Source of the DNA: Candidatus Saccharimonadota bacterium
GTDB lineage: Bacteria > Pseudomonadota > Alphaproteobacteria > CAJXXZ01 > 1604HC
Direction: 5' to 3'
DNA length: 32,000 nt
Assembly (NCBI RefSeq): GCF_008189405.1
Contig: NZ_CP043316.1
Span: forward strand, 510,001-542,000
The notes under the pieces are model-generated. The model was not told the origin of the DNA and made no database searches. It saw only the letters and a program-made list of their open reading frames with translations. Below are positions 7,394-26,671 of the stretch, piece by piece. A program made the position numbers and the translations under genes. The stretch's first letter is position 1. Each line of letters begins with the position of its first letter.

Positions 7394-8319
7394 TATAACA
7401 CCATACCTTTAGGTCTAATTTCAGACCAATCTTCTATTTTTGTATCTAAATCAAACTTATATTTAGATTGCAATACTGATCTAATTTCATCAACAGTTGT
7501 TCTACCACAACCAGCAACAGAAAACAGATCTTTTTCTGTCGCAGTAATCAAATCACCTATGTAGATAAACTTCAAATTTGATATCACATTCTGAGCTCTC
7601 TTAGATAATTGTAATGAAGAAGCAATTTCATCATTCCACCTAGCATCTGCAATTACTTCAACTTCTTCTACCTCTTCATCAGAAGCATCATCTTTTTCCA
7701 TCAAATCAACAGATTGATCCTTTAAGATTTTAAAAGCTTTCATTAACGCATCATAAGAGTCTACACTGCCATTTGTTTTAATATTAAAGCTTAATTGATC
7801 ATAATCAGTTTTCTGACCAACTCTCATATCTTTTACGTTATAAGAAACTCTTTCAATAGGACTAAAAGCTGAATCAAGCTTGATAAATCCTTCTGGAACT
7901 TCAAGCATATCAGATGAAACATAACCTTTGCCTGATTGAACAAAAATCTCAATAGAAATATCAGCAGAATCAGACAAATTACAAATATATTGTTCTGGAT
8001 TTAAAATTTCCACACCTGGAACAGAATCAAACATACTTGCATCAACTTTACCACCCTTAGCATTAAGAGTCATAGAAAATTCTTCTAAATCTGATTTGAA
8101 TACAATCTTTTTTAGATTTACAGCAATATATTCTACATCTTCTGAAACACCATTAATTGAGGAGAAAATATTATTCACTCCTTTAATTTTGAAACCTACT
8201 AATCCCAAACCTTTTATAGAAGAAAGTAAAATTCTTCTTACAGCATTACCAAAAGTTATACCATATCCAGGCTCTAACGGTCCAAATACATATTCATTAC
8301 TATTCTGAATATCAGACAC
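7393..8319 (-). CDS. rpoA: DNA-directed RNA polymerase subunit alpha
   Basis: GNAVRRILLSS in the N-terminal domain and a C-terminal domain LSKRAQNVISNLKFIYIGDL. GTG start at 8319 preceded by AAGGAGG 4 nt upstream. 308 aa, slightly short at the N-terminus. Confidence 0.93.
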   Translation of the reverse strand: MSDIQNSNEYVFGPLEPGYGITFGNAVRRILLSSIKGLGLVGFKIKGVNNIFSSINGVSEDVEYIAVNLKKIVFKSDLEEFSMTLNAKGGKVDASMFDSVPGVEILNPEQYICNLSDSADISIEIFVQSGKGYVSSDMLEVPEGFIKLDSAFSPIERVSYNVKDMRVGQKTDYDQLSFNIKTNGSVDSYDALMKAFKILKDQSVDLMEKDDASDEEVEEVEVIADARWNDEIASSLQLSKRAQNVISNLKFIYIGDLITATEKDLFSVAGCGRTTVDEIRSVLQSKYKFDLDTKIEDWSEIRPKGMVL

Positions 8320-8704
8320 GACGCCTCCTTGGCATTTTTACTCCATTAAAAGGGAAACTAGTTCTGTCTAATATAGTCTTCACACTAAAGTTTCTAGCTT
8401 GAAAAGTTTTAGCAGCAGAATCTCTACCATTTCCAAGACCTTTAAAAATAATTGAAAGACTTTTTACACCAAAACTACTCATTTTATTACAAAGATCTTC
8501 TGCTGCAGCTTGTGATGCATATGGCGTAGATTTTCTAGCACCTTTGAATCCAACAACTCCTGGAGAAGACCATGCAATAACAGCTTTAGTCTTATCAGAA
8601 AAAGCACTCATAATGATATTATTAGAGCTTGCACTAATATAAACTGTCACATGTGAATGTGTTTCTTTTTTTCTACTTGGTGCATTTCTTCTTGCTTTAA
8701 TCAT
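8312..8704 (-). CDS. rpsK: 30S ribosomal protein S11
   Basis: C-terminal FPFNGVKMPRRRRV and GARKSTPYASQAAAE. TGA stop. Confidence 0.95.
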   Translation of the reverse strand: MIKARRNAPSRKKETHSHVTVYISASSNNIIMSAFSDKTKAVIAWSSPGVVGFKGARKSTPYASQAAAEDLCNKMSSFGVKSLSIIFKGLGNGRDSAAKTFQARNFSVKTILDRTSFPFNGVKMPRRRRV

Positions 8705-9057
8705 TACATCACTTTCTTTCTACGCCTAACAGACTTAGCATTAGATTTAGTTCTTTGCCCACGTACTGGGAGACCATACAAATGCCTTCTACCTCTTAAG
8801 CTACCATTAGTTTGAAGTCTTTTAATATCGTTATTGATAGATCTTTGCAAATCTGGCCCAATGATAAATCCATACTTTTCAATTGTTTTACCCAACTGAA
8901 CAGCATGAGAATCATCAAGATCATGAACTCTAACAGAATCTTCAATGTTCATATCTTTACATATAATCTCAGCCCTATGATGACCTATACCATAAATCGC
9001 TCTCAAAGCGTATTTAAAAACTTTTTTCTTAGGTAAAACAAACCCATAAATTCTCAC
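8704..9057 (-). CDS. rpsM: 30S ribosomal protein S13
   Basis: RIYGFVLP start and GLPVRGQRTKSNAKS. GTG start at 9057 with GGAGG 7 nt upstream. Confidence 0.95.
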   Translation of the reverse strand: MRIYGFVLPKKKVFKYALRAIYGIGHHRAEIICKDMNIEDSVRVHDLDDSHAVQLGKTIEKYGFIIGPDLQRSINNDIKRLQTNGSLRGRRHLYGLPVRGQRTKSNAKSVRRRKKVM

Positions 9058-9095
9058 TTAGAGACCTCCAACAGAGAAATTATAAAGAAAAAGAA

Positions 9096-9728
9096 TCAAC
9101 AGATCAAGCTTAAAATGCTATTTGTAACATCATTAAAATTTTGATCAGCATTAATCTTATGCAAAATGTTTTTTGCAGCATAAAATTCAAGAATTTTTTT
9201 TGACTCTTCGCCAAAAATTTGCAATCTATTTTGAATTGCATTTTCAGAGATATCATCATCTCTTTTTTCTATATTAAATGACCCACATTTATTGCAAGCC
9301 AGGTCATTATTATCAATAGATAGTATAGCAGAGCAATCAGAGCATATATAACGCTTTTTCAGCCTATTAATCACATCTTCTGATGATATTTGAAACTCAA
9401 TAACACATGATAGCTTCTGCTTTAAATCACTTAACGCATCATCTAAGAAAATAGCTTGATCTATATTACGAGGTATTCCATCAAATAAAATACCATGATC
9501 TGCAGATTTAACTTTTTTATGAATCATATCTTTTATTATGTGTATAGGAACTAAATTTCCTTTTGATATAAGTTGATTAATCTCATTTCCTAACACACTT
9601 CCTGACTCACATTCTTCTCTTAGCATATCACCCATAGAAACTAAATCTAACTTTAGCTTTGCTGACACAATAAGTGCTTGAGTCCCTTTTCCAGATCCAG
9701 GAGGGCCCAAAAATGCTAAATTCAACAT
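9096..9728 (-). CDS. adk: Adenylate kinase (Cys4 zinc-lid type)
   Basis: P-loop GPPGSGKGTQA and lid CSDC...CNKC. Its position between secY and rpsM is the alphaproteobacterial arrangement. Confidence 0.93.
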   Translation of the reverse strand: MLNLAFLGPPGSGKGTQALIVSAKLKLDLVSMGDMLREECESGSVLGNEINQLISKGNLVPIHIIKDMIHKKVKSADHGILFDGIPRNIDQAIFLDDALSDLKQKLSCVIEFQISSEDVINRLKKRYICSDCSAILSIDNNDLACNKCGSFNIEKRDDDISENAIQNRLQIFGEESKKILEFYAAKNILHKINADQNFNDVTNSILSLIC

Positions 9729-11011
9729 TATCTTCTAAATTTTCCTGTCTTCATCTTATTAGAGCTAATATGAGAGTGTACATGTGAGAAAAATTCTAAT
9801 GTTACACCAACAATAATCAATAAACTAGTTCCATTTATATATATATCACTAGATTTATCAAGCAGAAAATCAGGAATAATAGAAATGCTCACTAAATACA
9901 CAGAACCAAACACTGTCAAATGTGTAATTAATTTTGTAAAAAACTGTTTTGTTTTTTCTCCAGGGCGAACTCCAGGAACAAAAACCCCATTCTTCTTTAG
10001 ATTATCAGCAACTTCTTCTGGGTTAAAAGTCATAGTAGCATATACAAAGGCAAAAAACATAATCATAATAGCTTTTAACGCAATATTCAAATTATTATTG
10101 TGTAGTAAATTTTTATACGAATCGCTTAAATTCAAAAATGACAAATTCAAAAGACTGTTTAGTCCAAATATGATAAAACCTAAAAACATCTGAGCAAACA
10201 TAGGAGGTAATACACCTGATACATTTAGCTTTACTGGCATCTCATGATTTTTATTCATCATCATTCTATTGTTAGGAAATTGAATAGGAACAACCCTCAT
10301 TGCACTTTCAAAAATAACAACAATAAGTAACAAAGTGCATATAAGCGCAATATAAAACAATGCATATGGCAATGAAACATGTCCTTTAAAAATCATCCCA
10401 ATAAAATTGATAGATCCTATGAATGACGCACTTATAATATTAACAAAAATCAACATTGAAGAACCATTTCCAATTCCTCTTGCTGTAATTTGCTCAGCAA
10501 ACCACATCACAAGTAATGTAGATCCCATCAAAGACAACACTGTAGATATTCTAAAGAAATAACCAGGATACATCACTAACGGATTATTAGCCTCGCTAGA
10601 ATATTCTAAGAATAAAGACAAAGAATATGATTGTAATATTACTAATAGCAATGTTAGATATCTAGTATATTGCTTGATTTTTGCTTGACCTGAAGGTCCA
10701 TCTTTTTTCAATTCTCTAAATTTAGGAACAGAAGACGTTAGCAATTGAATAACAATGCTAGCAGAGATGTAAGGAGCCAAACCCAAAGACATGATAGACA
10801 TTCGCTCTAAAGCTCTTCCAGAGAAAGAGTTAAATATACTAAAAAACTTCGCATTAAATTTAGTTTCTAGAAATGAAGATACGGCTGTTAAATCTATACC
10901 TGCAATAGGAACAAAAACTGCAAATCGGTATAAACAAACAATAAAAAAAGTAAATGATATTCTAGACATCACGTCCTTAAAGGTTTTCATGTTGTTGAAA
11001 ATGGAATTCAT
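9728..11011 (-). CDS. secY: Preprotein translocase subunit SecY
   Basis: 427-aa polytopic membrane protein with GLAPYISASIVIQLL. Sits at the rplO-secY-adk position. Confidence 0.95.
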   Translation of the reverse strand: MNSIFNNMKTFKDVMSRISFTFFIVCLYRFAVFVPIAGIDLTAVSSFLETKFNAKFFSIFNSFSGRALERMSIMSLGLAPYISASIVIQLLTSSVPKFRELKKDGPSGQAKIKQYTRYLTLLLVILQSYSLSLFLEYSSEANNPLVMYPGYFFRISTVLSLMGSTLLVMWFAEQITARGIGNGSSMLIFVNIISASFIGSINFIGMIFKGHVSLPYALFYIALICTLLLIVVIFESAMRVVPIQFPNNRMMMNKNHEMPVKLNVSGVLPPMFAQMFLGFIIFGLNSLLNLSFLNLSDSYKNLLHNNNLNIALKAIMIMFFAFVYATMTFNPEEVADNLKKNGVFVPGVRPGEKTKQFFTKLITHLTVFGSVYLVSISIIPDFLLDKSSDIYINGTSLLIIVGVTLEFFSHVHSHISSNKMKTGKFRR

Positions 11012-11463
11012 TATATTCCTTCTACTGCACCATTCGCAGATTCAATAGAACTTTTTGCCCCTGATGTAATTGAGTTCAACTTGATTTTAATTGGGAAAGT
11101 TATCGACCCTTTTCCAATCAATTTTAATTTGTCTTCAGATTTAGCAATTTTTACTGCTTTTAAGGACTCTAAGCTAACAGTTTCATTTTTATTTAAAATT
11201 CCTTTTTCAAAAGCAAAAAGCAAATCTCTTAAATTCATTGTATAAGTATTATCTAAGGTTTTTTTCCTAGAAGTAAAACCAATTTTTGGCAAACGCCTAT
11301 ATAAAGGAGTTTGACCACCCTCAAAACCTTTAATAGAAACTCCTGATCTTGCACATTGTCCTTTGTGACCTGCACCTGAAGTTTTTCCGGTTCCAGAACC
11401 AATTCCTCTGCCAACTCTTTTTCTATTTTTCATATTAGATGGCTTAATTAAATTTAATATCAT
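11011..11463 (-). CDS. rplO: 50S ribosomal protein L15
   Basis: KRVGRGIGSGTGKTSGAGHKGQ motif. Confidence 0.95.
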   Translation of the reverse strand: MILNLIKPSNMKNRKRVGRGIGSGTGKTSGAGHKGQCARSGVSIKGFEGGQTPLYRRLPKIGFTSRKKTLDNTYTMNLRDLLFAFEKGILNKNETVSLESLKAVKIAKSEDKLKLIGKGSITFPIKIKLNSITSGAKSSIESANGAVEGI

Positions 11464-11593
11464 GCTAATAAGATATCAGAGAAACACAAAAATTACAAAG
11501 CTAAATTATATTTATAACCATAATAATACACTAAGAGAAATTCAAATTGGAAAATTTATAATGTTATGTTTGCAAATAAATCAGTAAGTTTTA

Positions 11594-12205
11594 TTAAACG
11601 TTTTTACCAATTATTTTATCAAACTCTACCCCTCTTCTTAGGGCAATGATTTTTGGAGATTGCATGCTGAATATAGCCTTAAACAAAGCTTTAACAACAT
11701 TGTATGGATTGTTACTACCAATAGTTTTTACAACGGCATCTTTCACTCCCAATGCCTCCAAAGAAGATCTTACAACTTCACTAGCAATGATACCAGTTCC
11801 AGATGGAGCAGATCTTAAACAAATTCTTGTTCCACAATATTTAGTCTCTACATCATGATGGAATGTTCTTCCAGCTTTCAAAGAAACTTTAAACATAGAT
11901 CTAGAAGCTTTATCAATCGCTTTTCTTACTGCATCTGAAACTTCTTTTGACTTACCTAAGCTATAGCCTGCAGATCCATTTCCATCTCCAACAATAACAA
12001 AAGCACAAACTCTTTGTCTTTTTCCACCTTTTGTAACAGCTGCAATCCAGTTTAATGAAAGAACGTTCTTAATCAAATGGTCATTCACTTTTTTTCTAGA
12101 AGTATCAAATTTTCTAGGACGTCTAGAAGCATCAGATGTTTTTGAAAAATGCTGATTTGATTTTTTTTGATTTATATTTGCATTGCTTTCTTGCATATTA
12201 TTCAT
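11594..12205 (-). CDS. rpsE: 30S ribosomal protein S5 with a roughly 40-aa basic N-terminal extension
   Basis: VTKGGKRQRVCAFVIVGDGNGSAGYSLGKSKEV core. Confidence 0.95.
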   Translation of the reverse strand: MNNMQESNANINQKKSNQHFSKTSDASRRPRKFDTSRKKVNDHLIKNVLSLNWIAAVTKGGKRQRVCAFVIVGDGNGSAGYSLGKSKEVSDAVRKAIDKASRSMFKVSLKAGRTFHHDVETKYCGTRICLRSAPSGTGIIASEVVRSSLEALGVKDAVVKTIGSNNPYNVVKALFKAIFSMQSPKIIALRRGVEFDKIIGKNV

Positions 12206-12570
12206 TAGAACTCCAATCCATTTTCTCTTGCAGTATCAGCAAGAGCTTTAATACAACCATGCATTTTCCATCCACCAATATCGAAAACAATTTTTGTTTT
12301 ATTTTTCGCTTTTAATTTGTCAGCAATTTGCTTTCCAATCCATTTAAAGCTTTCCATACCATAAGTTTTCAATGAATCTTTTGGAAAATCTTTAGAATTA
12401 GAGCTAACAGAGGCGATAGTAATGTGGTTTGCATCATCTATAGCTTGGGCATATATAAACTTATTAGATTTAAAAACAGATAATCTTAATCTATTACCAG
12501 CATTATTTAACCTTAATTTATATCTTCTTCTTTGCTGTCTTCTGCAAAATGATATAGCCAATCTAGACAT
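12205..12570 (-). CDS. rplR: 50S ribosomal protein L18
   Basis: RLRLSVFKSNKFIYAQAIDD, at the position between rplF and rpsE. Confidence 0.93.
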   Translation of the reverse strand: MSRLAISFCRRQQRRRYKLRLNNAGNRLRLSVFKSNKFIYAQAIDDANHITIASVSSNSKDFPKDSLKTYGMESFKWIGKQIADKLKAKNKTKIVFDIGGWKMHGCIKALADTARENGLEF

Positions 12571-13109
12571 TATCTTTTACCTGCTTTCTTAATTACACCT
12601 TTACCATCGGGCAATATTTCACCACCTTTATATGGTATTGGCTTTCTATATGCAACAACTTCTGCTACAAACTTACCAACTTCTTCAGACTTAATTCCAT
12701 AAACTTCTATAAGTGTAGGCTTAACACATACAACTTTTAAAGAAGGTGGAACTTTCACTTCAATAGGGTGACTATATCCAAGTGACATCTCTAAAATATC
12801 TCCCTTTATAGCACTTTTATAACCAGTTCCAGATAACTCTAAAGTTTTTTTGAATGGGTTATTAATGCCCTTAATAGCAGAAACTATTTGCGCTCTAATA
12901 GTGCCTAACATAGGAAAGTTTCTACTTTTCTTTCCAGCTGGATCATTCAGAGAAATCATCATGGATTTATCAGAAACATCCAAATCTAAGAAATATGGAA
13001 TTTTGATTTGAATCTCACCATTAGATCCTTTGATCGCTAAAACTTTGTCAGCAAAAGTACAAACAATGCCATCAGCATATACAATAGGATTTCTCGCCAA
13101 TCTAGACAT
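12570..13109 (-). CDS. rplF: 50S ribosomal protein L6
   Basis: MSRLARNPI start, 179 aa, conserved position. Confidence 0.95.
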   Translation of the reverse strand: MSRLARNPIVYADGIVCTFADKVLAIKGSNGEIQIKIPYFLDLDVSDKSMMISLNDPAGKKSRNFPMLGTIRAQIVSAIKGINNPFKKTLELSGTGYKSAIKGDILEMSLGYSHPIEVKVPPSLKVVCVKPTLIEVYGIKSEEVGKFVAEVVAYRKPIPYKGGEILPDGKGVIKKAGKR

Positions 13110-13492
13110 TAGTAAACCTCACAAACAAGCTCACCACCAACACCTTGAGCATATGCTTTGATGTCAGATAGAACTCCATTAGGCGTACTAATAACAGATA
13201 AGGCAAATCTTTTTCTTCTCATGTTCTTTAAGTCTTTAGACTGAACATAAAATCTTCTTGAAGATTTAGAAATTCTTTTCATTCCTCTAATTACAGGAAC
13301 ACCCTTTATATCATACTTTAAAGTAACATTCATTGATCTATCAGATTCTTCTATATCTGCAATGAAACCTTCACTTTTCATAACCTCTAAAATGCTCTTA
13401 ACAAATTTAGATTTTTGTACTACAACAACCTCTTTACCAACTAAATAAGCATTCCTTATTCTAGCTAAAGTATCAGAAACTATATCATTCAT
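13109..13492 (-). CDS. rpsH: 30S ribosomal protein S8
   Basis: VSDTLARIRNA motif, 127 aa. Confidence 0.95.
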   Translation of the reverse strand: MNDIVSDTLARIRNAYLVGKEVVVVQKSKFVKSILEVMKSEGFIADIEESDRSMNVTLKYDIKGVPVIRGMKRISKSSRRFYVQSKDLKNMRRKRFALSVISTPNGVLSDIKAYAQGVGGELVCEVY

Positions 13493-13501
13493 AAAACCAC
13501 C

Positions 13502-13807
13502 TCACCAGCTCGCTTGCTCAACACCTGGAAGATATCCAGCCAAAGCAAACTCTCTTATTTTAATTCTGCAAATACCGAATTCTCTATGTACACCTCTTGG
13601 TCTACCGGTCAATTCGCATCTTCTTCTATATCTAATAGAAATACTTTTCTTAGGAAGATCATTCAATTTTTTCATTGCAACAACCTTATCTTTCCATTCT
13701 AATTTAGGATCCCTAATTGTTTTTTTTAATTCTTTTCTTATACTCTCAAATTTCTTACTTAATCTTAGTCTCTCTTTATTTCTATAAATCATACTAGTTT
13801 TAGACAT
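13502..13807 (-). CDS. rpsN: 30S ribosomal protein S14 (long, non-zinc type)
   Basis: RCELTGRPRGVHREFGICRIKIRE and a C-terminal ASW. Confidence 0.95.
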   Translation of the reverse strand: MSKTSMIYRNKERLRLSKKFESIRKELKKTIRDPKLEWKDKVVAMKKLNDLPKKSISIRYRRRCELTGRPRGVHREFGICRIKIREFALAGYLPGVEQASW

Positions 13808-14345
13808 TTTGAACCCTTTCTCTAAATGGAAATAACAAGCCCTCTAAAAGAGCTTTGCATTCTTTATCAGTAGTAGCAGAAGTAATAATTGCAATATTCA
13901 ACCCAAATGAAAATGCATCATCACTTTCGAAAAATATAGTATGATCTCTAATTCCAAGATTATAGTTTCCATTTCCATCAAATGCATTTAAAGACATTCC
14001 ATGAAAATCTCTAACTCTAGGAAGAGCTAGATAAACCAATCTATCTACAAAATTATACATAGCATCTTTTCTTAAAGTAACATGCACCCCAGATACCATA
14101 CCCTCTCTAACAGAGAATCCAGCAACAGATTTTTTAGCTATAGCTCTTACAGGCAATTGACCTGTAATTTTCATAATTTGCTCAAAAACAAAATCAATCT
14201 TATTTTGCTCTTTTAAATACTTACCACATCCAGCACTAACAACAATTTTTGAAAGCTTTGGAACCGCAAATGGATTACTTAATGAAAGCTTTGTTTGAAC
14301 TTCAGAAGCAATAGATTTTTTAAATAAATTACTTAAACGATTCAT
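13800..14345 (-). CDS. rplE: 50S ribosomal protein L5
   Basis: NPFAVPKLSKIVVSAGCG, 181 aa, conserved position. Confidence 0.95.
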   Translation of the reverse strand: MNRLSNLFKKSIASEVQTKLSLSNPFAVPKLSKIVVSAGCGKYLKEQNKIDFVFEQIMKITGQLPVRAIAKKSVAGFSVREGMVSGVHVTLRKDAMYNFVDRLVYLALPRVRDFHGMSLNAFDGNGNYNLGIRDHTIFFESDDAFSFGLNIAIITSATTDKECKALLEGLLFPFRERVQNV

Positions 14346-14665
14346 GATCTAACCTCTTTTTCAGATTTTTTAAACACTAAAACTTTTTTATCATCTTTAA
14401 TGCTATATGTAACTTTAGCAGCTTTCCCATCCAAAACATGCGCAACATTAGAAATATGCACAGATTTTTCCATCTCTACTATTCCACCTTGAGTGTCATT
14501 TGTAGGCTTTTGGTGTTTCTTTTTAATATTTACACCTTTAACCACAACACGCATATTCTTCTTATCTACTTTTAAGATTTCTCCAACTTTACCTTTATCA
14601 TTACCACAAGTCAAAATCACAGAATCCCCTGTTTTGACTCTTAGATTAATATTCTTAATATTCAT
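14342..14665 (-). CDS. rplX: 50S ribosomal protein L24
   Basis: KOW motif VKTGDSVILTCGNDKGKVGEILKV. Confidence 0.95.
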   Translation of the reverse strand: MNIKNINLRVKTGDSVILTCGNDKGKVGEILKVDKKNMRVVVKGVNIKKKHQKPTNDTQGGIVEMEKSVHISNVAHVLDGKAAKVTYSIKDDKKVLVFKKSEKEVRS

Positions 14666-14666
14666 T

Positions 14667-15026
14667 TTAATACACCTTCAAAGCTCTAGATGTAATAGCA
14701 GAATCAGTAGCTCCACTTTCTCTAGCAACACATCCTAAAACTCTAGTTCCAAGCATTTTACCCTTAGCGTCAACTAATACAACTGCATTGTCACCACTTC
14801 TCCATTTAAGACCATTTTTTCTATAGATCATGGATTTTGTTCTAACTATTACTGCGTAATGAACTTCACCCTCTTTAACATTAGCATTAGGCTCAGCTCT
14901 TCTAACGGACACTCTAATTTTATGCCCAACACGAGCATCTCCATTACGAGAACCCATATTAAAACATTTCACCTTTTTAGCTCCAGAGTTATCAGCAACA
15001 TTTAATATAGTCTCTTTATAAATCAC
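14667..15026 (-). CDS. rplN: 50S ribosomal protein L14
   Basis: (M)IYKETILNVADNSGAKKVKCF. GTG start at 15026, overlapping rpsQ by 11 nt. Confidence 0.95.
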   Translation of the reverse strand: MIYKETILNVADNSGAKKVKCFNMGSRNGDARVGHKIRVSVRRAEPNANVKEGEVHYAVIVRTKSMIYRKNGLKWRSGDNAVVLVDAKGKMLGTRVLGCVARESGATDSAITSRALKVY

Positions 15027-15255
15027 TGACTACCTCCACGAAACACCAATGTTTTCTCTTAGAAATTGGAGCGCAAGCCTTCGCTTTGACGTTATCCCCA
15101 ACTTTACATGTATTCATAGGATCATGAATCATGAATTTCTTAGATCTAGTAATAATATTTTTATAGACAGGATGCTTGAATCTTCTCTTAATTTCAATAG
15201 ACACAGTTTTGTCAGCAGAGCATGACACAACTTTCCCACTTATGTACTTAGTCAT
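15016..15255 (-). CDS. rpsQ: 30S ribosomal protein S17
   Basis: GKVVSCSADKTVSIEIKRRFKHPVYKN. Confidence 0.95.
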   Translation of the reverse strand: MTKYISGKVVSCSADKTVSIEIKRRFKHPVYKNIITRSKKFMIHDPMNTCKVGDNVKAKACAPISKRKHWCFVEVVSDL

Positions 15256-15394
15256 TCTTCACCTCTATAGTCTTCATTTTAGCAATCTTTCTCCTAATTT
15301 TCTTCAATTCAGAAGTATTTTTTAGGGCTTTTTTAGAATGCTGAAACTTCAACTCTAGATAGCTACTCATAAGTTCTAATAATTTTTCAGACAT
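15248..15394 (-). CDS. rpmC: 50S ribosomal protein L29, N-terminally short (48 aa)
   Basis: Below the 60-aa threshold of the ORF track, so translated by hand: MSEKLLELMSSYLELKFQHSKKALKNTSELKKIRRKIAKMKTIEVKND. It aligns with E. coli L29 from about residue 13 (FNLRMQ.. / ..VRRDVARVKT). It sits at the canonical position with an ATGACTAA overlap onto rpsQ. An in-frame TAG 5 codons upstream of the ATG prevents a longer ORF. Confidence 0.8.
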   Translation of the reverse strand: MSEKLLELMSSYLELKFQHSKKALKNTSELKKIRRKIAKMKTIEVKND

Positions 15395-15663
15395 ACATAA
15401 AATGTACTATATATTCAAATTTAAATCTAGAGAACCAAAGATAAGAAAGTTGGTATGGTTAACATAGCTTATTTAACTAAAGATAAAAAGGTTAACTAAC
15501 TTATATAGCTCACTCAACCAAACATAAAAATCATTTTTCTATGAGTGATTTGTAATCATAACACTATAAATATCCCCTACAACGAATTATAAGAATACTA
15601 TTGTAAAGATATCATAACATTCACCTTAAGCTTTCAGTATCAACTTATATCAAATCTTTCACT

Positions 15664-16170
15664 TCAACTACTTTTAATACCAACATAAATGTCAAAAACT
15701 GAATTGCTAGGATCTTTAGCGCGCTCATCATAAACTTCAAAATCTGCGATATACGCGCGTTCTCCACCAAGGTCACTGCTATTCATTCCCCAGATCTTCC
15801 TCCACGCACTAATACAGACACCTGGCATTTCTCCAGGCCCTTCTGTGAATTTCATATAACTTTGCACAGGAATATTCAAAACTACTAAAGCATCAGAATC
15901 TGCATTGACTAGCTCAGCCCCTTCATATACTTCCTCTCCAACAAAGTAAGTGTACTCATCATGCTCATCTTTTTCATAATTAGCATAAACACAATACATA
16001 ACACCTGGATTCTTTCTATTCGGAATCTTAGATGAAATGTCATTGTTTAAATACTGGTTGATTGTATTCAATATTTTGCCTTTTGTTGGATCCATTTCGT
16101 TTGCATTGCTGGTTTTAACTGAAATTCCAATTAATTTCATTCCCAACAATGTTGTTTGCTTTTTATTCAT
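15664..16170 (-). CDS. GyrI-like / Cass2-type small-molecule (effector) binding domain protein
   Basis: 168 aa from the ATG at 16170, with GAAGGAAG 7 nt upstream; the track ORF extends to 16254. The pattern LLGMKLIGISVKTSN..EMDP..GKI...IPNRKNPGVMYCVY.NYE.DE..EYTYFVGEEV...PGEMP....AWRKIW......GGERAY.ADFEVYDERAKDP.NS.FDIYVGIK is the typical stand-alone AraC-effector-binding/GyrI-like fold signature. Confidence 0.8.
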   Translation of the reverse strand: MNKKQTTLLGMKLIGISVKTSNANEMDPTKGKILNTINQYLNNDISSKIPNRKNPGVMYCVYANYEKDEHDEYTYFVGEEVYEGAELVNADSDALVVLNIPVQSYMKFTEGPGEMPGVCISAWRKIWGMNSSDLGGERAYIADFEVYDERAKDPSNSVFDIYVGIKSS

Positions 16171-16672
16171 AACCACTTCTTCCTTCAACCTATATTGTAT
16201 ATTAAATTTGGAAGAGCAGGGCAATACCCTATAATTATTTGCATATATCTCCATATTAAATATACATAAATCCCCATGACTTACCTTTGAATTTCATAAT
16301 TAATTTGATGCAATAGCATAACTTATTAAGTGTATGGTTTATATACAGCGCATTCATGATTCAAACTATATCTAATGCTTTGTTCGCATACAACATAGTT
16401 TCAATAAAATATCTCTGCTTATTTATTTACGCTACTGCTTTTTTATTTATATGCTCAATTTACTAACCAATCAATATTCTCATAGCTTTACGCAGTATAC
16501 TCAGCCTTATAGCTCTCAAAATATATCACTATAAACTTGATTTGCTGATCTTTAAATATATTTATTAGGAAATGCTTTTAATTATAAATTAATACTCCTT
16601 TATATATTCAATCAATTATTATGCAATCTATTAAACATCAAAATTCCAACAACCTTACAATAAGCCCACTTG

Positions 16673-16722
16673 AGATTATAATATCAGGCGATTTGGAAGA
16701 TTATAATATCAGGCGATTTGGA
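16673..16722. repeat. Perfect 25-bp tandem duplication (AGATTATAATATCAGGCGATTTGGA x2)
   Basis: Read directly: 16673-16697 equals 16698-16722. Each unit contains the self-complementary ATTATAAT (TATAAT on both strands) and GGCGATTTGG. An inverted third copy of GGCGATTT (as AAATCGCC) lies at 16775-16782. Confidence 0.9.
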
Positions 16723-17217
16723 GTGTTATTGTTTTATTTATGCTTATTTTATTTATCACTATCATTATGAAACTAAATCGCCCACCATTTATTAGTTTGA
16801 TTCAGGATTATATATCAATCATATATATCATTCATTTCAGTTCATGAGAACAATTTGAATTCAATAAAAACATAACTAAATTCTATTCCCAAAATAGCTA
16901 GGCTTAATAAAAAATCATATATATCATTTCTTAAAGTATAATCGCTTTAAAATATCTTTTATCCTGTAAAACAATTCTTATTGTTAAAGTCATTTCTAAT
17001 AAATATAATTATAAGGTTTGATATTTACAGCATACCTATTCATTATAAAGTATATAATCTCATATATATTGGAAACAATAAAAAATAATATTTTTGTAAA
17101 AATTTGATTATGTAAATTCACATAAAAAGCATTATCTAAATAAATTTAACAATTGCTGAACACAACAAATATGCTGCTCAATCTAATTTTATGGCAGAAA
17201 TGCCAGAGTGATATAAA

Positions 17218-17634
17218 TTAAAAAACACCTTTTTCAACAAATTTCACTTGCATAGGAAGCTTTGCTGCAGCAAGAGCTAACGCCTGCTTTGCAGTTTCTC
17301 CAGTCACACCAGCAATATCAAACAATATCGCACCAGGTCTAACCATAGCTACATATCTATCAACACTTCCTTTACCACTACCCATTCGGACTTCTTGCGG
17401 TTTAGAGCTAATAGGATTATGTGGAAAAATTCTAATTAACAATTTACCAGCACGTTTCATAGAACGTCTAATCGCACTACGACAAGCCTCAATTTGCCTT
17501 GAAGTAACACGTGCATGAGCCATGGCTTTTAATCCATACTCTCCCTGCAAACTAAAACCTCTAGTCGCCATACCTTTTGGAACTTTTTTCAATCCATATT
17601 TGAATTTTCTTTTTTTAGGTTGTAACATACTCAT
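17218..17634 (-). CDS. rplP: 50S ribosomal protein L16
   Basis: MLQPKKRKFKY and RMGSGKGSVDRYVAMVRPG. Start at 17634, or at the third codon (17628). Confidence 0.95.
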   Translation of the reverse strand: MSMLQPKKRKFKYGLKKVPKGMATRGFSLQGEYGLKAMAHARVTSRQIEACRSAIRRSMKRAGKLLIRIFPHNPISSKPQEVRMGSGKGSVDRYVAMVRPGAILFDIAGVTGETAKQALALAAAKLPMQVKFVEKGVF

Positions 17635-17638
17635 TTAA

Positions 17639-18271
17639 TTATTTACTCCTTATTCCTTTATAGGTCCATACTTTCACACCACATAAACCAGAGTTGGTTT
17701 TAGCAACAGCTAATGCATAATCTATATCAGCTCTTATAGTATGCCTAGGAACACTACCTTGTGCAATTGCAAACTTTCTAGCGATTTCAACTCCACCCAA
17801 TCTACCAGAACAAATAATTTTAATTCCTTTAAGACCAAATCTCATTGCATCAGCAACATATCTTTTAATCAAAAATTTATATTGCTTTCCTTTAGAAATA
17901 TCAAAAGCGATTTTTTCTGCTATGCACTTAGCATCCATCTCTGGCTTTCTAACAGGATTAACCTGTATTTTCAAAGACGCAGTTTCAGGCAAAGCTGAAG
18001 CAATTCTATCTTTCAATAAATCTAAATCTCTCCCAGATTTACCTATGATAATTCCAGGTCTCGCAGCCTTAATCTCTATATGTATATTATTAGATAATCT
18101 AGCAATATTTACAGCAGACATATCCCATCTATAAGCTTTATCAAAAGATCTCATTAAAGATCTTATTTTTTCATCTTCAAGAATATTCTTAGCATATGAT
18201 TTGTAATTACAAAACCAATCAGAAGAATACTTCTTTGCCCATAAATTAAATAAAGGTACCTTATTACCCAT
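17639..18271 (-). CDS. rpsC: 30S ribosomal protein S3
   Basis: MGNKV start, KH domain and GRLGGVEIAR. Confidence 0.95.
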   Translation of the reverse strand: MGNKVPLFNLWAKKYSSDWFCNYKSYAKNILEDEKIRSLMRSFDKAYRWDMSAVNIARLSNNIHIEIKAARPGIIIGKSGRDLDLLKDRIASALPETASLKIQVNPVRKPEMDAKCIAEKIAFDISKGKQYKFLIKRYVADAMRFGLKGIKIICSGRLGGVEIARKFAIAQGSVPRHTIRADIDYALAVAKTNSGLCGVKVWTYKGIRSK

Positions 18272-18289
18272 TAAACACCAAACCTTACT

Positions 18290-18625
18290 TTAAACATTTT
18301 TTAAAACCACTCTTATATTAGAAAAAGGTCTGTACTTAGTTCCAACTCTTCCTCTACCTTTAAACTCTATTCTTTTCAAATACTTTCCTCTTCCAACTAC
18401 AACTTCATCTACTATTAATGATCCATCAATACCTTTGTCCATCGCGTTAGCAATAGCTGAATCAACCAATGTTTTCAAAATTCTAGCATATTTCCCTGGC
18501 ATATGATCTAAAGCTCCAACAACTCTATGAGCATCACACCCACTCATTGATCTAGCAATCATTTGAAAACAAAATGGCTTACCATATATTTTATTGCTTT
18601 TCGCAACTACAAATCTATTAATCAT
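18290..18625 (-). CDS. rplV: 50S ribosomal protein L22
   Basis: 111 aa, [15 protein letters not shown] and [12 protein letters not shown], conserved position. Confidence 0.93.
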
Positions 18626-18894
18626 TTATTAGCCCTCTTATTTCCATGAGGCAAATGCTTTCTAGTAAAAGAAAATTCACCTAACTTATGACCAATCATA
18701 GCTTCTGTAACATAAACAGGAATAAACTTTCTCCCATTATGTACCAAAAAAGTTATACCAACAAAAGATGGAATAATCATTGATCTTCTAGACCAAGTTT
18801 TAATTGATCCAACTTTTTTTCCTTCTTTATTTCTCTCAACATGTTTGAACAAGTGAGAATCAACAAAAGGTCCTTTAATTATTGATCTACTCAT
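18622..18894 (-). CDS. rpsS: 30S ribosomal protein S19
   Basis: [12 protein letters not shown] and [20 protein letters not shown]. Confidence 0.95.
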
Positions 18895-19745
18895 TTTTTA
18901 GATCCTCCCACAATCATTTTATTTACTTTTCTCTTAGATCTTGTCTTCTTACCTTTAGCAGAAAGACCCCAAGGAGAACAAGGGTGTCTACCACCAGAAG
19001 TTTTACCTTCACCACCACCATGAGGGTGATCAACTGGGTTCATGGCAACACCACGCACATGAGGCTTAATGCCTTTCCATCTGTTTCTACCAGCTTTACC
19101 AATTTTCTCATTCTTATGATCAGGATTTGAAACAGATCCAATTATACACTTACAATCTCCTAAGAATTTTCTTTTTTCTCCAGAGGTAAGTTTCAGAATG
19201 ATATATTCGCCTTCTCTACCCAATATAGTAGAGTATGATCCAGCAGATCTAGAAACCACAGCTCCTCTACCAGGAACTAATTCAATGCTATGAACTTGAA
19301 CACCATTAGGCACATTTTTCAAAAACGTTGCATTTCCAGGAACAACAGACACTGTTTCACCAATTTCTATTTTATCTCCTTGCTTCATTCCAGCAGTAGT
19401 TAGCAAATATTTTCTTTCATTTCCAAAATCCACTAAAGAAATAAATCCAGTTCTGGAAGGATCATATTCAAATCTCTCAATAATTCCAGACTTATTCCAA
19501 ATAGATTTGTCATAAAAAGAAACCATTCTCATTATATATTTCGATCCACCACCTCTATATCTTACAGTCAATTTTCCAGAAGAGTTTCTTCCACCTTTTC
19601 TAGCAACACCTTTAACTAAAGATTTTACAGGAGACCCTTTCCACAAAGATCTTTTATCAACTAATACTGTTCCTCTTTGAGCTGGAGTCATAGGATCATA
19701 ATATTTTAAAACAACTTCTTGAGATGTGATTATATTGCTTTTCAT
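18891..19745 (-). CDS. rplB: 50S ribosomal protein L2
   Basis: [23 protein letters not shown]. Confidence 0.95.
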
Positions 19746-20053
19746 GATGCAACCTCCGTAATCTTAGAAATATCTTCTTTTGAAATTCTAACAAATGCTT
19801 TTTTGAAAGATGCTTTCTTTCCTTTCACACCCTTAAAGAATTTCGATTTGCTTTTCACATTACAAGTATTAACATCAATAACATCTACTCCAAGCATATT
19901 CTTACACATTGATTTAATAATGCTTTTTGAAATATCTTTGCTAAATTTTAGTGTCAACACACCATACTTAGACATAGCTATCGCTTTTTCAGAGAAAATA
20001 TTCCCGCTAAATTTCTTGATAATCGAGCTTAACAACATAATTTCTTGATTCAT
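19742..20053 (-). CDS. rplW: 50S ribosomal protein L23
   Basis: 103 aa at the position between rplD and rplB, with the KFFKGVKGKKASFKKAFV tail typical of L23. Confidence 0.9.
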   Translation of the reverse strand: MNQEIMLLSSIIKKFSGNIFSEKAIAMSKYGVLTLKFSKDISKSIIKSMCKNMLGVDVIDVNTCNVKSKSKFFKGVKGKKASFKKAFVRISKEDISKITEVAS

Positions 20054-20742
20054 TTTAATCTACCTTCCATATCTTCCAAAACATTCTTATCAAATACAAC
20101 GATATCATGCTTTAAAATAGACAAAGAGTTAAGACCTGCTAATTTCAATAAATTCACATTATGAAGATTTGACGCCCCTCTTTCAAACGACTCTTGAAAA
20201 GTATTTGCAATAAACAACACTTTTATCTTAGATTGATCTTTCAAAATTTTCTTATCTTTATCTTTAAACACTTTTTTTGCGCTATCTTTCAAAATGTTTT
20301 CTAGCATTTTTGAAAAATCAGAAGTTTTATTAGATGAGTGATTTGCAAGATCATCAACAAACAAAATACTTTCTTCATTCATTTTTTTAGAGATAGACAT
20401 TTTAACTGCTAATTTCTTAACTTTTTTATTAAGATCAAACTCATAAGATCTAGGCTTTGGGCCAAAGGAAACTCCACCACCTCTAAAGTGAGGCTCTCTA
20501 CCATCACCCTGCCTAGCTTTTCCACTTTCCTTTTGAGGTCTACACTTTTTTGTAGAACCAGAAACTTCAGAAACGCCTTTAGTTGAGTGAGTTCCTTGTC
20601 TATTTTTAGACATATGCCATCTAATCACTTCATACAAAACAACTTGATTCACTTTTACTGAAAATATAGATGGATCCAGATTCACATTTCCAACAGACAC
20701 ACCTTCAAAATTCAAAACGCTATTCATTAATTCTTTATTCAT
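20050..20742 (-). CDS. rplD: 50S ribosomal protein L4
   Basis: RQGTHSTKGVSEVSGSTKKCRPQKESGKARQGD and GGGVSFGPKPRSY. Confidence 0.95.
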   Translation of the reverse strand: MNKELMNSVLNFEGVSVGNVNLDPSIFSVKVNQVVLYEVIRWHMSKNRQGTHSTKGVSEVSGSTKKCRPQKESGKARQGDGREPHFRGGGVSFGPKPRSYEFDLNKKVKKLAVKMSISKKMNEESILFVDDLANHSSNKTSDFSKMLENILKDSAKKVFKDKDKKILKDQSKIKVLFIANTFQESFERGASNLHNVNLLKLAGLNSLSILKHDIVVFDKNVLEDMEGRLK

Positions 20743-21401
20743 AACTTCTCTCCCAAAGATACAGATTTATACAAACCACAGAAAGAGCCTTTAGATCCAG
20801 GCACGGCACCATAAACACCAACAATAGATCCACCGCTATCTAATAAATCAACTTTTTCTTCGATATATTTGATTTTCATATTCTTAACAGTAATTGTTTC
20901 AGCACCATATCTTCCAGCCATTTTCTTACCTTTTAGAACTCTGCTTGGCTTTCTAGAACCTGTAGAACCACCACTCCTATGTGCTTTTGACACACCATGA
21001 GAAGCTCTTAATCCACTAAATCCATGCCTTTTCATACCACCAGAGAATCCTCTACCAAGACTAATTCCTTGAACATCAACGAATTCATTTTGAGCAAAAA
21101 AGTCTGAAACAGAAATAGCGTCACCTATGTTGAATTTCTCAACATTCATAACTCTAAACTCTTTTACTTTTTCAAACACTCTTCCTTCATATTGACAAAG
21201 ACCATGTTGAGATTTGTTCCAAGATTTCAAGCTTGAATTACCGAAACCAATTATAACAGCAGAATAGCCATCACGATCCATAGTTTTAAAACCAATAACA
21301 ATAGGAGACTCAATATATAACAATGTAAGAGGAATAAAACTTCCATCACACATTACTTGAGACATTCCCATTTTCTTACATAACAATCCAAAATTTTTCA
21401 T
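20739..21401 (-). CDS. rplC: 50S ribosomal protein L3
   Basis: GLLCKKMGMSQV start and GFSGGMKRHGF. Confidence 0.95.
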   Translation of the reverse strand: MKNFGLLCKKMGMSQVMCDGSFIPLTLLYIESPIVIGFKTMDRDGYSAVIIGFGNSSLKSWNKSQHGLCQYEGRVFEKVKEFRVMNVEKFNIGDAISVSDFFAQNEFVDVQGISLGRGFSGGMKRHGFSGLRASHGVSKAHRSGGSTGSRKPSRVLKGKKMAGRYGAETITVKNMKIKYIEEKVDLLDSGGSIVGVYGAVPGSKGSFCGLYKSVSLGEKL

Positions 21402-21790
21402 GCTTTAATCTCAATCTCCACTGATGCAGGAATGGAACAACTTCCATCCAAAATATCCATCACTTCTTTCGAAGAGGGTAGTTCTATAATTCTTGTTCTC
21501 ACAAATCTCTCAAGCTGATGTCTAGCTTTTTTGTCAATGTGAGGACTAGAAAGAATAGTCCATACTTTTCGCTTTTTAGGCAAAGGCACAGGACCTATTA
21601 CATTTCCAGAACCTATTACTTTTTTAACATTTTCTACCAAAAGCAATGCAGCTTTATCTAATGAAAATACATCAGAAGATCTTAAAATAACTCTAACAAA
21701 GCCTTTTTTCTTAAATTTCTTCTTTAATATTCCACTAACTGAATCAGTTTTCTTTTTCTGCTCAGTATTCATATTTTCCCTTACTATCAT
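21398..21790 (-). CDS. rpsJ: 30S ribosomal protein S10 with a lysine-rich extension of about 27 aa at the N-terminus
   Basis: Core VRVILRSSD...GPVPLPKKRKVWTILSSPHIDKKARHQLE. The track start at 21796 is TTG. The ATG at 21790 has GAAGGA 6 nt upstream. Confidence 0.93.
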   Translation of the reverse strand: MIVRENMNTEQKKKTDSVSGILKKKFKKKGFVRVILRSSDVFSLDKAALLLVENVKKVIGSGNVIGPVPLPKKRKVWTILSSPHIDKKARHQLERFVRTRIIELPSSKEVMDILDGSCSIPASVEIEIKA

Positions 21791-21836
21791 AAACAATCCT
21801 TCACGAGATTAACGCATATTATCAAATAAATCAATC

Positions 21837-23897
21837 TCACTTTAAAATACTTTCTACCAAATTCTTAGGCACAGATCTGTAATGATCAAAAGACATAGAG
21901 AAAGTAGCTCTACCTTGAGTACTAGATCTCAAATCATTAATATATCCAAACATAGAGGATAGAGGTACAAAATACTTAATAATATTAGTTCCTCCAGCCA
22001 AATATTCTTTGTCTTCAAAAACACCACGCCTTTTTGTCAAATCACCTTCAATGCTACCAACATACTCTTCTGGCGCAATGACTTCTACTTTCATCACAGG
22101 CTCTAGAAGTACTGACCCACTCTTAATTGCTTGCCTAAAACCTTCTTTAGCAGCAATTTCGAACGCATAAACACTAGAGTCAACATCATGGTAAGATCCA
22201 TCAATAAGGCTCACTCTAAAGTCAACAACAGGATAACCATACAAACCAGAAGTCAATGCAGATTTTAATCCTTTTTCAACTCCAGGAATATATTCAATAG
22301 GAATCGCTCCACCACGAATTTTGTTAACAAATTGGAAACCCTCTCCTCTTTCTAGAGGTTCGAAAATCATTTCCACTTTCGCATATTGACCAGCTCCACC
22401 ACTTTGCTTTTTGTGCTCATACAAAATTTTAGAATCTTTGCTAATAGTTTCTCTGTATGCAACCTGAGGATTACCAACAAGAGCATCAACTTTAAATTCT
22501 CTTTTCAATCTATCTACAATAATTTCAAGCTGCAATTCACCCATTCCGTGAATCAAAGTCTGATCTGTTTCATGATCTGAGCTAACCTTAAATGAAGGGT
22601 CTTCTTTTACAAGAGATTCCAAACCTTTAGCAAGCTTATCTCTATCTGCTTTGGTTTTAGGCTCAACAGAAAGAGAAATCACAGGATCAGGAGCTGAAAT
22701 TGTCTCCAACACAATCTTGTTTTGGGCATCACAAAGAGTATCACCAGTAACAGCATCAATTCCACAAAGCGCAATTACATCACCAGCACTTGCATGTTTA
22801 ATATCTTCTCTATCATTCGCATGAAGAATCAACATTCTACCTACACGAACTTTAGATCCGCGACTACTATTGTAAATCTGATCTCCAGCAGAAATCTTAC
22901 CAGAATAAACTCTGAAATATGTCAAAGAACCGACAAATTGGTCACATGTAATCTTAAATGCAAGACCACAAAATGGCTCATTTTCATCAGCTTTTCTAAT
23001 AATTTCTTCTTTGCTAACAGGATCAATTCCCTTTGTAGCAGGCAAATCCAAAGGAGATGGCAAGTAATCTATAACTGCATCAAGAAGTGTTTGCACACCC
23101 TTATTTTTAAATGCAGATCCACAAAATACAGGAAAGATTTTAGATCCAATCACAGCAGATCTAATCGCATCCTTTATTTCTTGCGCAGAAGCTTCTTCAC
23201 CATTCAAGTATTTGCCCATAATATTGTCATCAAATTCTGAAACAACATCAATTAATTTTTCTCTATATTCATTTGCTTGCTCAACCAAATCTTCAGGAAT
23301 ATCAATCACATCAAAAGATGCACCAAGGTTATCACCTTTCCAAACAATTGCATTCATCTCAACGATGTTTACAATTCCTTTGAACTCAGATTCTGAACCA
23401 ATAGGAATATTAAGCGCAACACCTTTTGCACCCAATCTAGATTTGATCATATCAAAACATCTGAAAAAATCAGCTCCAGATCTATCCATCTTGTTTACAA
23501 AACAAATTCTAGGAACTGCATGCTTATCAGCTTGCCTCCATACAGTTTCAGATTGAGGCTCAACACCAGCAACACCATCAAAAACAACAACTGCACCATC
23601 AAGAACCCTCAAAGATCTCTCTACTTCAATTGTAAAATCAACGTGACCTGGAGTGTCAATCAAATTAAATTGATGATCTTTCCAAAAACATGTTGTGGCA
23701 GCAGAAACGATAGTAATTCCACGCTCTTGCTCTTGAGCCATATAATCCATAGTAGCCGCACCATCATGAACTTCACCAATTTTATAAGTTTTACCTGTAT
23801 AATAAAGAATTCTTTCAGTAGTAGTGGTCTTACCAGCATCAATATGAGCAACAATACCAATATTTCTGTATAACTTTAAATCAATTTTTGAAGCCAT
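21837..23897 (-). CDS. fusA: Elongation factor G
   Basis: [27 protein letters not shown] and NKMDR. 686 aa. Confidence 0.97.
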
Positions 23898-24370
23898 TAC
23901 TTGCTCCCAAAATGTTCAAATGCTTTGTTAGCCTCAGCCATCTTATGAACATTTTCTCTCTTGGTCATTGCATCACTTTTTCCACCACTAATAATGTTTA
24001 TTAATTCAGAAGAAAATTTCTTGATCATGCACATGCCTTTTTTATTATTTGCAGCATCAATAGTCCACTTCAAAGCAAGCATGTAAGCTCTCTTAGGCCT
24101 TACTTCAACAGGAACTGGATATGTAGATCCACCAACACGTCTAGACTTAACTTCAACTATAGGCTTGACCTTATTGATCACTTCTTTAGCAATTTTTTGA
24201 ACATCATTATTCAACTCTTCTGAAGCAATTCTAAATGACTCATTTACAATATTTTCAGCGATTTGCTTTTTACCATCTTTCATTACTCTTCTAACAAAAC
24301 TACCTAATATATCTCTATCGAATAATACATTAGAATCTGATTTGCTTAATTTACTTTTTCTACGACCCAT
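23897..24370 (-). CDS. rpsG: 30S ribosomal protein S7
   Basis: [15 protein letters not shown], with AGGAG upstream of the ATG. Confidence 0.95.
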
Positions 24371-24379
24371 AAAAACTCC

Positions 24380-24760
24380 TTATTTCGGCTTAGAAGCACC
24401 GTATCTAGAACGAGCTCCCCTTCTTGCTTCGACACCTTTAGCATCTAAAATACCTCTAACTACCCTATAGTTTACACCAGGCAAATCAGGAGGACCTTTT
24501 CCTCTTACAAGCACAATAGAATGCTCTTGCAAAGAGTGACCTTCACCAGGAACTGCAGCAGTAACTTCGATTCCAGTTGTAAGCATAACCCTCACAACTT
24601 TTCTTTGAGCAGAGTTAGGCTTTCTTGGAGTCATGTTAAACACCTTAACACACGTCCCTTTTCTTTGTGGGGATCCTCTTAAAGCTGGAAACTTAACTCT
24701 ACTAGCTTTATCCTGTCTTCCACCATTACTTTTTCTACACAATTGTCTTAATGTTGGCAT
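24380..24760 (-). CDS. rpsL: 30S ribosomal protein S12
   Basis: MPTLRQL start, [12 protein letters not shown] and [13 protein letters not shown]. See the finding on the substituted streptomycin-resistance positions. Confidence 0.95.
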
Positions 24761-26644: not shown

Positions 26645-26671
26645 ATGCTTATAATAATAATTAGCAAATAT

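Follow-up and report, generated by a model that had tools for sequence, protein, structure and literature searches.

Lineage-specific placement of a Cass2 family gene in a clade-wide soft spot of the ribosomal gene cluster of Candidatus Cytomitobacter primus

In the genome of Candidatus Cytomitobacter primus, a Holosporaceae endosymbiont of the diplonemid Diplonema japonicum, the ribosomal protein genes rplP and rpmC (encoding L16 and L29) are 1,823 bp apart, and the DNA between them carries one gene for a GyrI-like/Cass2 protein. We analysed this gap (positions 15395-17217) in a stretch of 32,000 nucleotides (nt), hereafter the window, from the closed 622,378-bp contig OX638200.1 (GCA_951805245.1). 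The initial annotation of this DNA, which was made from the sequence alone, had read the gap as an insertion that splits a tight operon. Our data favour, with moderate confidence, a different reading, in which the rplP-rpmC junction would have been an operon boundary since ancestral times, open to incoming genes, rather than an operon broken by an insert. The gene is placed, specifically in this lineage, at a soft spot that the ribosomal cluster of the whole clade already had, and as such the case is fairly ordinary.

All genes of the cluster are on the minus strand, and both the contig gene table and the Pfam identities confirmed the separation originally described. The gene rplP (17218-17634; Ribosomal_L16, E 2.7e-40) is the last gene of an upstream ribosomal block with the order trmD-rplS-rpsL-rpsG-fusA-rpsJ...rplP, and rpmC (15248-15394; 48 amino acids (aa); Ribosomal_L29, E 1.3e-11), which has no Shine-Dalgarno (SD) sequence, may represent the first gene of an rpmC...rpsE unit. 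Also as described, the other junctions from trmD to rplQ are tight, each being an overlap or a gap of at most 46 bp, with the exception of 130 bp at rpsE/rplO. The distance between the end of L16 and the start of L14 is 2,191 bp in the window, versus 444-947 bp (median 611) in 80 other loci, among which the sole outlier, at 1,466 bp, is a relative of C. primus. The range of 444-947 bp holds for 78 unrelated genomes.

We examined the same junction in three relatives, ranked by L16 identity: L003 (OZ247501.1; 621,866 bp; 79%), L085 (619,361 bp; 74%) and L086 (CP060235.1; 558,489 bp; 68%). The gap between rplP and rpmC is 106 bp in L003, with no content, 389 bp in L085, with no gene, and 1,069 bp in L086, with an antisense ankyrin-repeat gene (Ank_2, E 1.9e-29), compared with 1,823 bp and a co-oriented Cass2 gene in C. 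primus. The junction is thus open in all of the relatives examined, which contradicts the view that the insert splits a tight operon, and the tight rplP/rpmC/rpsQ adjacency of the E. coli-type S10 operon is found neither in C. primus nor in the three relatives. The junction has been expanded repeatedly and filled independently by unrelated genes at least twice. In L086 (5415-6483), the filling consists of the antisense ankyrin-repeat gene, of 169 aa, and a 45-aa ankyrin fragment, and represents an independent occupation of the same spacer. Scans of metagenomes for further relatives, with an L29 alignment and with the DNA pattern of the conserved block described below, returned none.

The Cass2 gene is absent from the rplP-rpmC junction in L003, L085 and L086, and in C. 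indipagum the copy lies elsewhere; the placement of the gene is thus lineage-specific. Within the compared set, C. indipagum is the closest to C. primus, with FabI proteins that are 85% identical. Its Cass2 homologue, with 55% protein identity and 74% nucleotide identity over the 5' half, is located downstream of fabI, outside the ribosomal cluster, and its flanks show no homology. In the L003 and L085 genomes (loci L094 and L095), the neighbours of fabI differ again and no Cass2 gene is nearby, and the ribosomal cluster of L003, the closest complete relative, is interrupted behind rpsE. The differing fabI neighbourhoods and the break in L003 indicate that gene order is fluid in this clade. 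The segment following rpsE in L003 (10281-12408) contains a 259-aa open reading frame (ORF) made up mostly of GGDRGGRSGGF repeats, followed by an antisense 330-aa ORF whose sequence looks like that of a histidine-kinase/receiver gene; rplO was not found within 2.1 kb past the broken rpsE end. Unannotated ORFs follow rpsE in L085 too.

We found that the four spacers could not be aligned with each other except over the last 45 nt or so before the rpmC start codon. In the four-genome alignment, this conserved block (15395-15435, minus strand, in C. primus) has the consensus T(A/G)GA(C/T)T, exactly 17 nt, TA(C/A/G)ATT, 6-8 nt and ATG. The C. primus version reads TAGATT (15424-15429), 17 nt, TACATT (15401-15406), TTATGT and ATG, and in L003, L085 and L086 the distance from the -10 element to the ATG is 7-8 nt. 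The pattern has a single match in the window, at rpmC, and also matches the homologous site in each of the three relatives. In all four genomes, rpmC starts with ATG and has no usable SD sequence, the GAGG of L003 being only 1 nt from the ATG. The rpmC gene thus combines a TAnnnT hexamer that ends 6-8 nt before the start (5-8 nt being expected of a leaderless gene), a -35-like hexamer at a spacing of 17 nt (expected 16-18 nt), the lack of an SD sequence and an AUG start, which are the sequence hallmarks of a leaderless gene. We infer that the block is a putative ancestral promoter of sigma-70 type and predict that the rpmC mRNA is leaderless or near-leaderless. Because the block is conserved in relatives lacking the insert, the putative promoter predates the insert, which runs counter to the earlier proposal that the insert brings a new promoter for rpmC-rplQ.

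A similar arrangement is present at other sites in the window. Nearly all of the operon-internal ribosomal genes are preceded by a purine-rich SD sequence, whereas trmD, rpmC, rplO and a HAD-family gene are not; in all four of the latter, a TAnnnT hexamer ends exactly 6 nt before the ATG, and in three of them a TTGACA-like hexamer is present 17 nt upstream. The gap-following sites with this signature are 25874-25902 (trmD; TTGATA-17-TAACAT-6-ATG; minus strand; no SD), 15395-15435 (the rpmC block), 11470-11498 (rplO, after the 130-bp gap; TTGTAA-17-TATCTT-6-ATG; minus strand; no SD) and 26651-26656, and the HAD-family gene, also without an SD sequence, has TATTAT-6-ATG. Finding the same architecture before rplO, after its 130-bp gap, supports the interpretation of the gaps in the cluster as operon boundaries.

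This signature extends to the clade. We took a census of the gene calls of seven loci (L001, L003, L083, L085, L086, L094 and L095) from C. primus, C. indipagum and the three relatives, in which a gene was counted as gap-following if the preceding gap was at least 60 bp. An SD-like motif was present in 61 of 73 internal genes versus 10 of 47 gap-following genes (Fisher p 1e-11). The TAnnnT hexamer was observed 5-7 nt before 22 gap-following starts, versus 8.5 expected from the upstream background (P ~7e-5), and the count without the four rpmC sites was 19 (P ~4e-4). In published in-silico work, leaderless genes are identified by a TANNNT box located some 10 nt before the start (PMC3160421). 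These sequence patterns suggest that leaderless mRNAs are common in Cytomitobacter-like Holosporaceae; a literature search found no report of leaderless genes in Holosporales. The likeness to known leaderless genes (Zheng et al. 2011, PMC3160421; GeneMarkS-2, PMC6028130) lies in the fixed short distance between TAnnnT and AUG, the lack of an SD sequence and the restriction to operon-first genes. Such genes have, however, been described chiefly in Actinobacteria, Deinococcus-Thermus and some other groups, whereas in the present case the argument is made from sequence.

Several observations weigh against the interpretation of the junction as an operon boundary with a promoter at rpmC. The -35 hexamer agrees with TTGACA at only three of six positions in two of the four genomes, and a generic promoter scan of the window did not list the rpmC block site. 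Since the four sequences that gave the block pattern are also those in which it was later counted, its recurrence reflects conservation and not function; the gene starts used in the census came from automatic gene calls; and the junction comparison comprises C. primus, L003, L085 and L086, the search for L16 homologues having yielded no protein of C. indipagum or Candidatus Nesciobacter abundans. In addition, prediction gave no intrinsic terminator behind rplP or the Cass2 gene (fold z-scores -1.0 and +0.49), the only terminator-like prediction being located inside the Cass2 coding sequence. Read-through transcripts covering rplP, the Cass2 gene and rpmC may therefore exist, and the units are perhaps not cleanly separate.

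The rpmC block could instead be an RNA-level or protein-binding element. On a read-through transcript it would then serve, for example, to enhance translation independently of an SD sequence, to mark a processing site or to bind a ribosomal protein as an operator, and the cluster would still be one operon with a passenger gene. The block being conserved yet having a weak -35 hexamer would fit such an element, as would the lack of a terminator and the gap of only 106 bp in L003, across which co-transcription with rplP is plausible. We nevertheless consider it unlikely, since the geometry of two hexamers 17 nt apart and an ATG 6 nt further on recurs at the unrelated genes trmD and rplO and at the HAD-family gene, TAnnnT is enriched clade-wide 5-7 nt before first genes lacking an SD sequence, and no Rfam family matches. 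The recurrence at unrelated genes and the enrichment in the clade are better explained by a promoter than by a gene-specific RNA element.

With a promoter at rpmC, the course of events may be reconstructed as follows. The ribosomal cluster of Cytomitobacter-like Holosporaceae would be cut into transcription units at rplP/rpmC and at rpsE/rplO, with rpmC driven by its own ancestral sigma-70-type promoter. A -10 box with its end 6-8 nt from the ATG would place the 5' end of the mRNA on the start codon or right beside it, so that rpmC would need no SD sequence. As the promoter would be situated at the gene itself, the DNA from the rplP stop codon to the promoter would be selectively free, and such an unconstrained spacer would explain both the lengths ranging from 106 bp to 1.8 kb and the settling of two unrelated genes without harm to the 19 downstream essential genes. 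The Cass2 passenger would have arrived by ordinary rearrangement or recombination in a fluid genome, with no recognisable mobile element, and would owe its transcription either to a promoter within the 1-kb spacer or to transcription running on from rplP.

The Cass2 gene (15664-16170, minus strand) is intact and stand-alone and encodes 168 aa. It is the only ORF of at least 60 aa on the gene strand of the gap, and one 65-aa ORF lies antisense within it. An SD-like sequence, GAAGGAAGAAG (16176-16186, minus strand), is located 5 nt upstream of the start codon; the description of the gap as holding one co-oriented 168-aa gene with a strong SD sequence was thus confirmed. An alternative reading of 196 aa from position 16254 merely extends the protein ahead of the domain, while the homologues are 162-168 aa long and NCBI annotates 168 aa, under the name GyrI-like domain-containing protein. 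The gene is an exception among gap-following genes in that an SD sequence is present and a nearby -10 box is absent; because no TAnnnT is found within 12 nt of its start, it looks leadered. Further upstream, a TATATT hexamer at 16259-16264 is separated by 4 nt from an in-frame ATG at 16254. To judge from its sequence, this hexamer could be a candidate -10 box for the Cass2 gene, which would then have a leader of about 80 nt including the SD sequence.

The assignment of the protein to the GyrI-like/Cass2 fold, made in the initial annotation, was upheld by profile searches, by sequence matches to solved structures and by structure prediction. Pfam Cass2 (PF14526) was matched with E 1.3e-22 and 81.1 bits, against a cut-off of 27, with residues 10-165 aligned to positions 7-150 of the 150-position profile, and Pfam GyrI-like (PF06445) with E 5.3e-11 and 43.4 bits, against a cut-off of 26. 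By sequence, the closest solved structure is that of Vch_Cass2 from Vibrio cholerae (PDB 3gk6, E 5.6e-11). The GyrI-like fold is a tandem pair of beta-alpha-beta-beta modules. An AlphaFold2 model built from 57 homologues (mean predicted local distance difference test score (pLDDT) 92.7, predicted template modelling score (pTM) 0.88) has two successive strand/helix/strand segments, and at each of the 21 positions where the 57 aligned sequences do not vary, the C. primus protein has the shared residue. Foldseek, with a probability of 1.0, gave template modelling (TM) scores of 0.70-0.75 to the C-domain of BrlR, Cass2 (3gk6) and SAV2435 and of about 0.6 to CTR107, Rob and SbmC. The match to lin2189 (5x5m), which represents the cyclopropanoid hydrolases of the GyrI-like group (YtkR7/lin2189 type), was weak (E 2.6e-4, TM 0.51, 8% identity), versus TM 0.72-0.75 for the binder types.

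Vch_Cass2 (PDB 3GK6; PF14526; TM 0.72) resembles the C. primus protein in being a single-domain GyrI-like protein of about 150-170 aa with no DNA-binding domain. It is reportedly able to bind cationic drugs. The two proteins are, however, only about 23% identical, the C. primus gene is not in an integron, to judge from the lack of an attC-like structure and of a recognisable integrase in the gene calls for about 27 kb of the window, and its product belongs to a distinct and well-populated subfamily. The same fold, with TM scores of 0.60-0.75, is shared with the BrlR C-domain, SAV2435, CTR107, Rob, BmrR and SbmC/GyrI, although the sequence identity of the C. primus protein to the polyspecific GyrI-like binders is 12-24%. 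BrlR, Rob and BmrR are regulators with DNA-binding domains, whereas no such domain was found in the 168-aa protein. In several of these structures the bound ligand is a planar aromatic or cationic molecule, namely a pyocyanin analogue, tetraphenylphosphonium and rhodamine 6G, and it is on this account that we propose a binding or sequestering role. By analogy, the protein is most likely an intact, functional small-molecule binder, and it would bind or sequester a small, probably planar or cationic hydrophobic molecule, like its structural relatives.

The subfamily is large. Its members, of 162-168 aa and 50-58% identical to the C. primus protein, are found in Rickettsia, Orientia, Legionellales, Aquicella and many metagenomic contigs, and carry the JGI label 'YdeE'. 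NCBIfam has no model for the 168-aa protein, and a literature search, which included GyrI-like proteins in Rickettsia, found no functional study of this Cass2 subfamily. The protein itself is unremarkable within the known GyrI-like/Cass2 family; what is unusual is its location. No neighbourhood is conserved across the family. In a Rickettsiaceae metagenome-assembled genome (MAG; L089:985-1482), the homologue lies between genes for Band_7 and HtrA-like protease proteins; at L091:6001-6489, it is beside an ABC exporter and a nitroreductase, near transposase and ankyrin genes; and in C. indipagum (L083:10001-10489), it follows fabI.

The position of the Cass2 gene would be functionally meaningful if the gene were expressed mainly on the S10 transcript, from the trmD or rpsJ promoter, and hence in step with ribosome synthesis. 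This form of co-regulation, which is compatible with an operon boundary at rpmC, is to us a possibility worth keeping in mind and no better than that. Like operon-internal genes, the Cass2 gene is co-oriented and has a strong SD sequence, and both the lack of a predicted intrinsic terminator after rplP and the lack of a TAnnnT close to its start would agree with read-through. On the other hand, 1,047 bp of untranslated DNA with 25% GC separate rplP from the Cass2 gene, and long untranslated stretches usually favour Rho-dependent termination or RNA decay. Moreover, the homologues are found in unrelated contexts (fabI, Band_7/HtrA-like, ABC transporter), so that no conserved link to a ribosomal operon is seen. 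A further version of a functional position, in which the ribosome-linked GyrI-like protein sequesters a small toxic molecule from the host or from the co-resident endosymbiont Ca. Nesciobacter abundans, shields translation or the cell from it and so serves as an embedded small-molecule immunity factor, appears to us highly improbable. The published RNA-seq for the host D. japonicum is poly(A)-selected.

The remainder of the gap has few features. The AT-rich spacer between rplP and the Cass2 gene (16171-17217; 1,047 bp; 24.8% GC) has no detectable gene, RNA family, terminator or homology, and the variable part (15436-15663) of the downstream flank of the Cass2 gene (269 bp; 25.3% GC) has no terminator, attC-like structure or homology to the relatives. 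Our ORF listing agreed with the original statement that neither flank contains an ORF of at least 60 aa. No tRNA or tmRNA lies in the gap, and Rfam gave no match there, whether gathering scores or a limit of E<=1 were applied. Nor did Pfam, at E<=1, reveal a pseudogene remnant in the 1,047-bp spacer, of which the ten longest stop-to-stop fragments in six frames were searched. Searches of the spacers by blastn and tblastx against 13 loci of relatives and Cass2 homologues were negative, as was a self-blast against the window. At 16673-16722, the 1,047-bp spacer contains a perfect 25-bp tandem duplication (two copies of AGATTATAATATCAGGCGATTTGGA, 100% identity), which is probably most simply explained as a recent slippage event in unconstrained DNA. 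Each copy of AGATTATAATATCAGGCGATTTGGA has a TATAAT on the minus strand, which is the gene-carrying strand.

An alternative is that the gene was acquired recently and horizontally, on a mobile element or an integron cassette that happened into the ribosomal cluster. Like the initial annotation, we found no transposase, no terminal inverted repeats and no convincing target-site duplication, and our repeat and homology searches revealed no integrase in the gap either. The inverted repeats there are at most 27 nt long, 74-88% complementary and not at the borders, and direct repeats of 13-15 nt occur about as often as chance would produce them in AT-rich DNA. A 14-nt direct repeat at 15522/17120 was considered as the border of an element and rejected, since it has one mismatch and is one of several chance-level matches. 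Insertion by a transposon or insertion sequence was rejected for want of a transposase, border inverted repeats and a target-site duplication, and an integron cassette because the region 3' of the gene has no attC-like structure or inverted repeat, its fold z-score being the +0.49 given above. The gene tables, which cover about 27 kb of the 32-kb window, contain no integrase-like gene, and very few mobile elements have been reported in these genomes (bioRxiv 10.1101/719211).

Other evidence on recent acquisition points in both directions. The family name comes from an integron cassette protein, the G+C content at third codon positions (GC3) is slightly high, and the Cass2 proteins of C. primus and C. 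indipagum are 55% identical whereas their FabI proteins are 85% identical. The distance between these two Cass2 proteins is 0.69, versus a median of 0.60 to homologues of unrelated bacteria. In a neighbour-joining tree of 120 homologues, C. primus paired with C. indipagum in 14 of 100 bootstraps and with the Rickettsiaceae MAG in 44 of 100. These bootstrap values are uninformative as to whether the gene was relocated within the genome, from a place beside fabI, or acquired separately. The overall composition and codon usage, however, are within the range of the neighbouring genes (GC 36%; GC3 0.30 versus 0.22 +/- 0.05), so that the gene does not look recently foreign, and the initial view of it as acquired cargo was not supported in this respect. 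Taken with the lack of mobile-element traces, this makes recent acquisition on such a vehicle improbable.

A chimeric join that placed an unrelated segment between rplP and rpmC has, in our estimation, a practically negligible probability. The C. primus assembly was built from PacBio HiFi reads with metaMDBG (PMC13598402) and yielded a closed contig of 622 kb, and the same 168-aa protein is present in the NCBI-annotated C. primus proteome; together these make a chimera across 1.8 kb very unlikely. The relatives, too, show expanded spacers at the same junction, and the composition of the spacer is typical of the intergenic DNA of this genome, as exemplified by an 881-bp gene-free stretch with 22% GC directly after rplQ (6162-7042). 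This stretch also shows that spacers of about 1 kb are not unique to the rplP-rpmC junction in this 'gene-dense' genome.

Other peculiarities were seen in the ribosomal cluster of the window (7043-25867). The genes trmD-rplS are joined to rpsL by a 1-nt overlap, resulting in a fusion of the trmD and str operons; rpsJ comes immediately after fusA, without tuf, as in Rickettsia; and rpmD, rpmJ and infA are not present. The C. primus L29 is only 48 aa long and lacks about the first 11 positions of the Pfam profile.

Interrupted or rearranged S10/spc/alpha clusters are known in other bacteria, and Rickettsia has a fusA-rpsJ arrangement. The organisation of ribosomal clusters is said to have been surveyed by Coenye and Vandamme in 2005. 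The C. primus cluster resembles these cases in that an otherwise conserved gene order is interrupted or contains unrelated genes, and in having fusA-rpsJ without tuf as in Rickettsia. It differs from them in that the break is inside the E. coli S10 operon, between rplP and rpmC, recurs in the clade with variable content and has a promoter-like block at rpmC. A literature search found no description of a clade-recurrent rplP/rpmC break with a conserved block, or of rplP/rpmC insertions in endosymbionts.

A gene adjacency that ranks among the most conserved in bacteria is thus relaxed in a whole clade of protist endosymbionts, a plausible reason being that an internal promoter at rpmC turned the DNA upstream of it into a neutral spacer. 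The context, that is the rpmC block and the leaderless signature, is of more interest than the insert. The Cass2 subfamily, being retained in many intracellular bacteria, including Rickettsia, Orientia, Legionellales and Cytomitobacter, may be a reasonable target for ligand discovery. If the reading of the block and the signature is correct, Holosporaceae with genomes of 0.6 Mb would start most of their operons with leaderless mRNAs, which would affect the annotation of gene starts and would bear on how translation initiation evolves during genome reduction.

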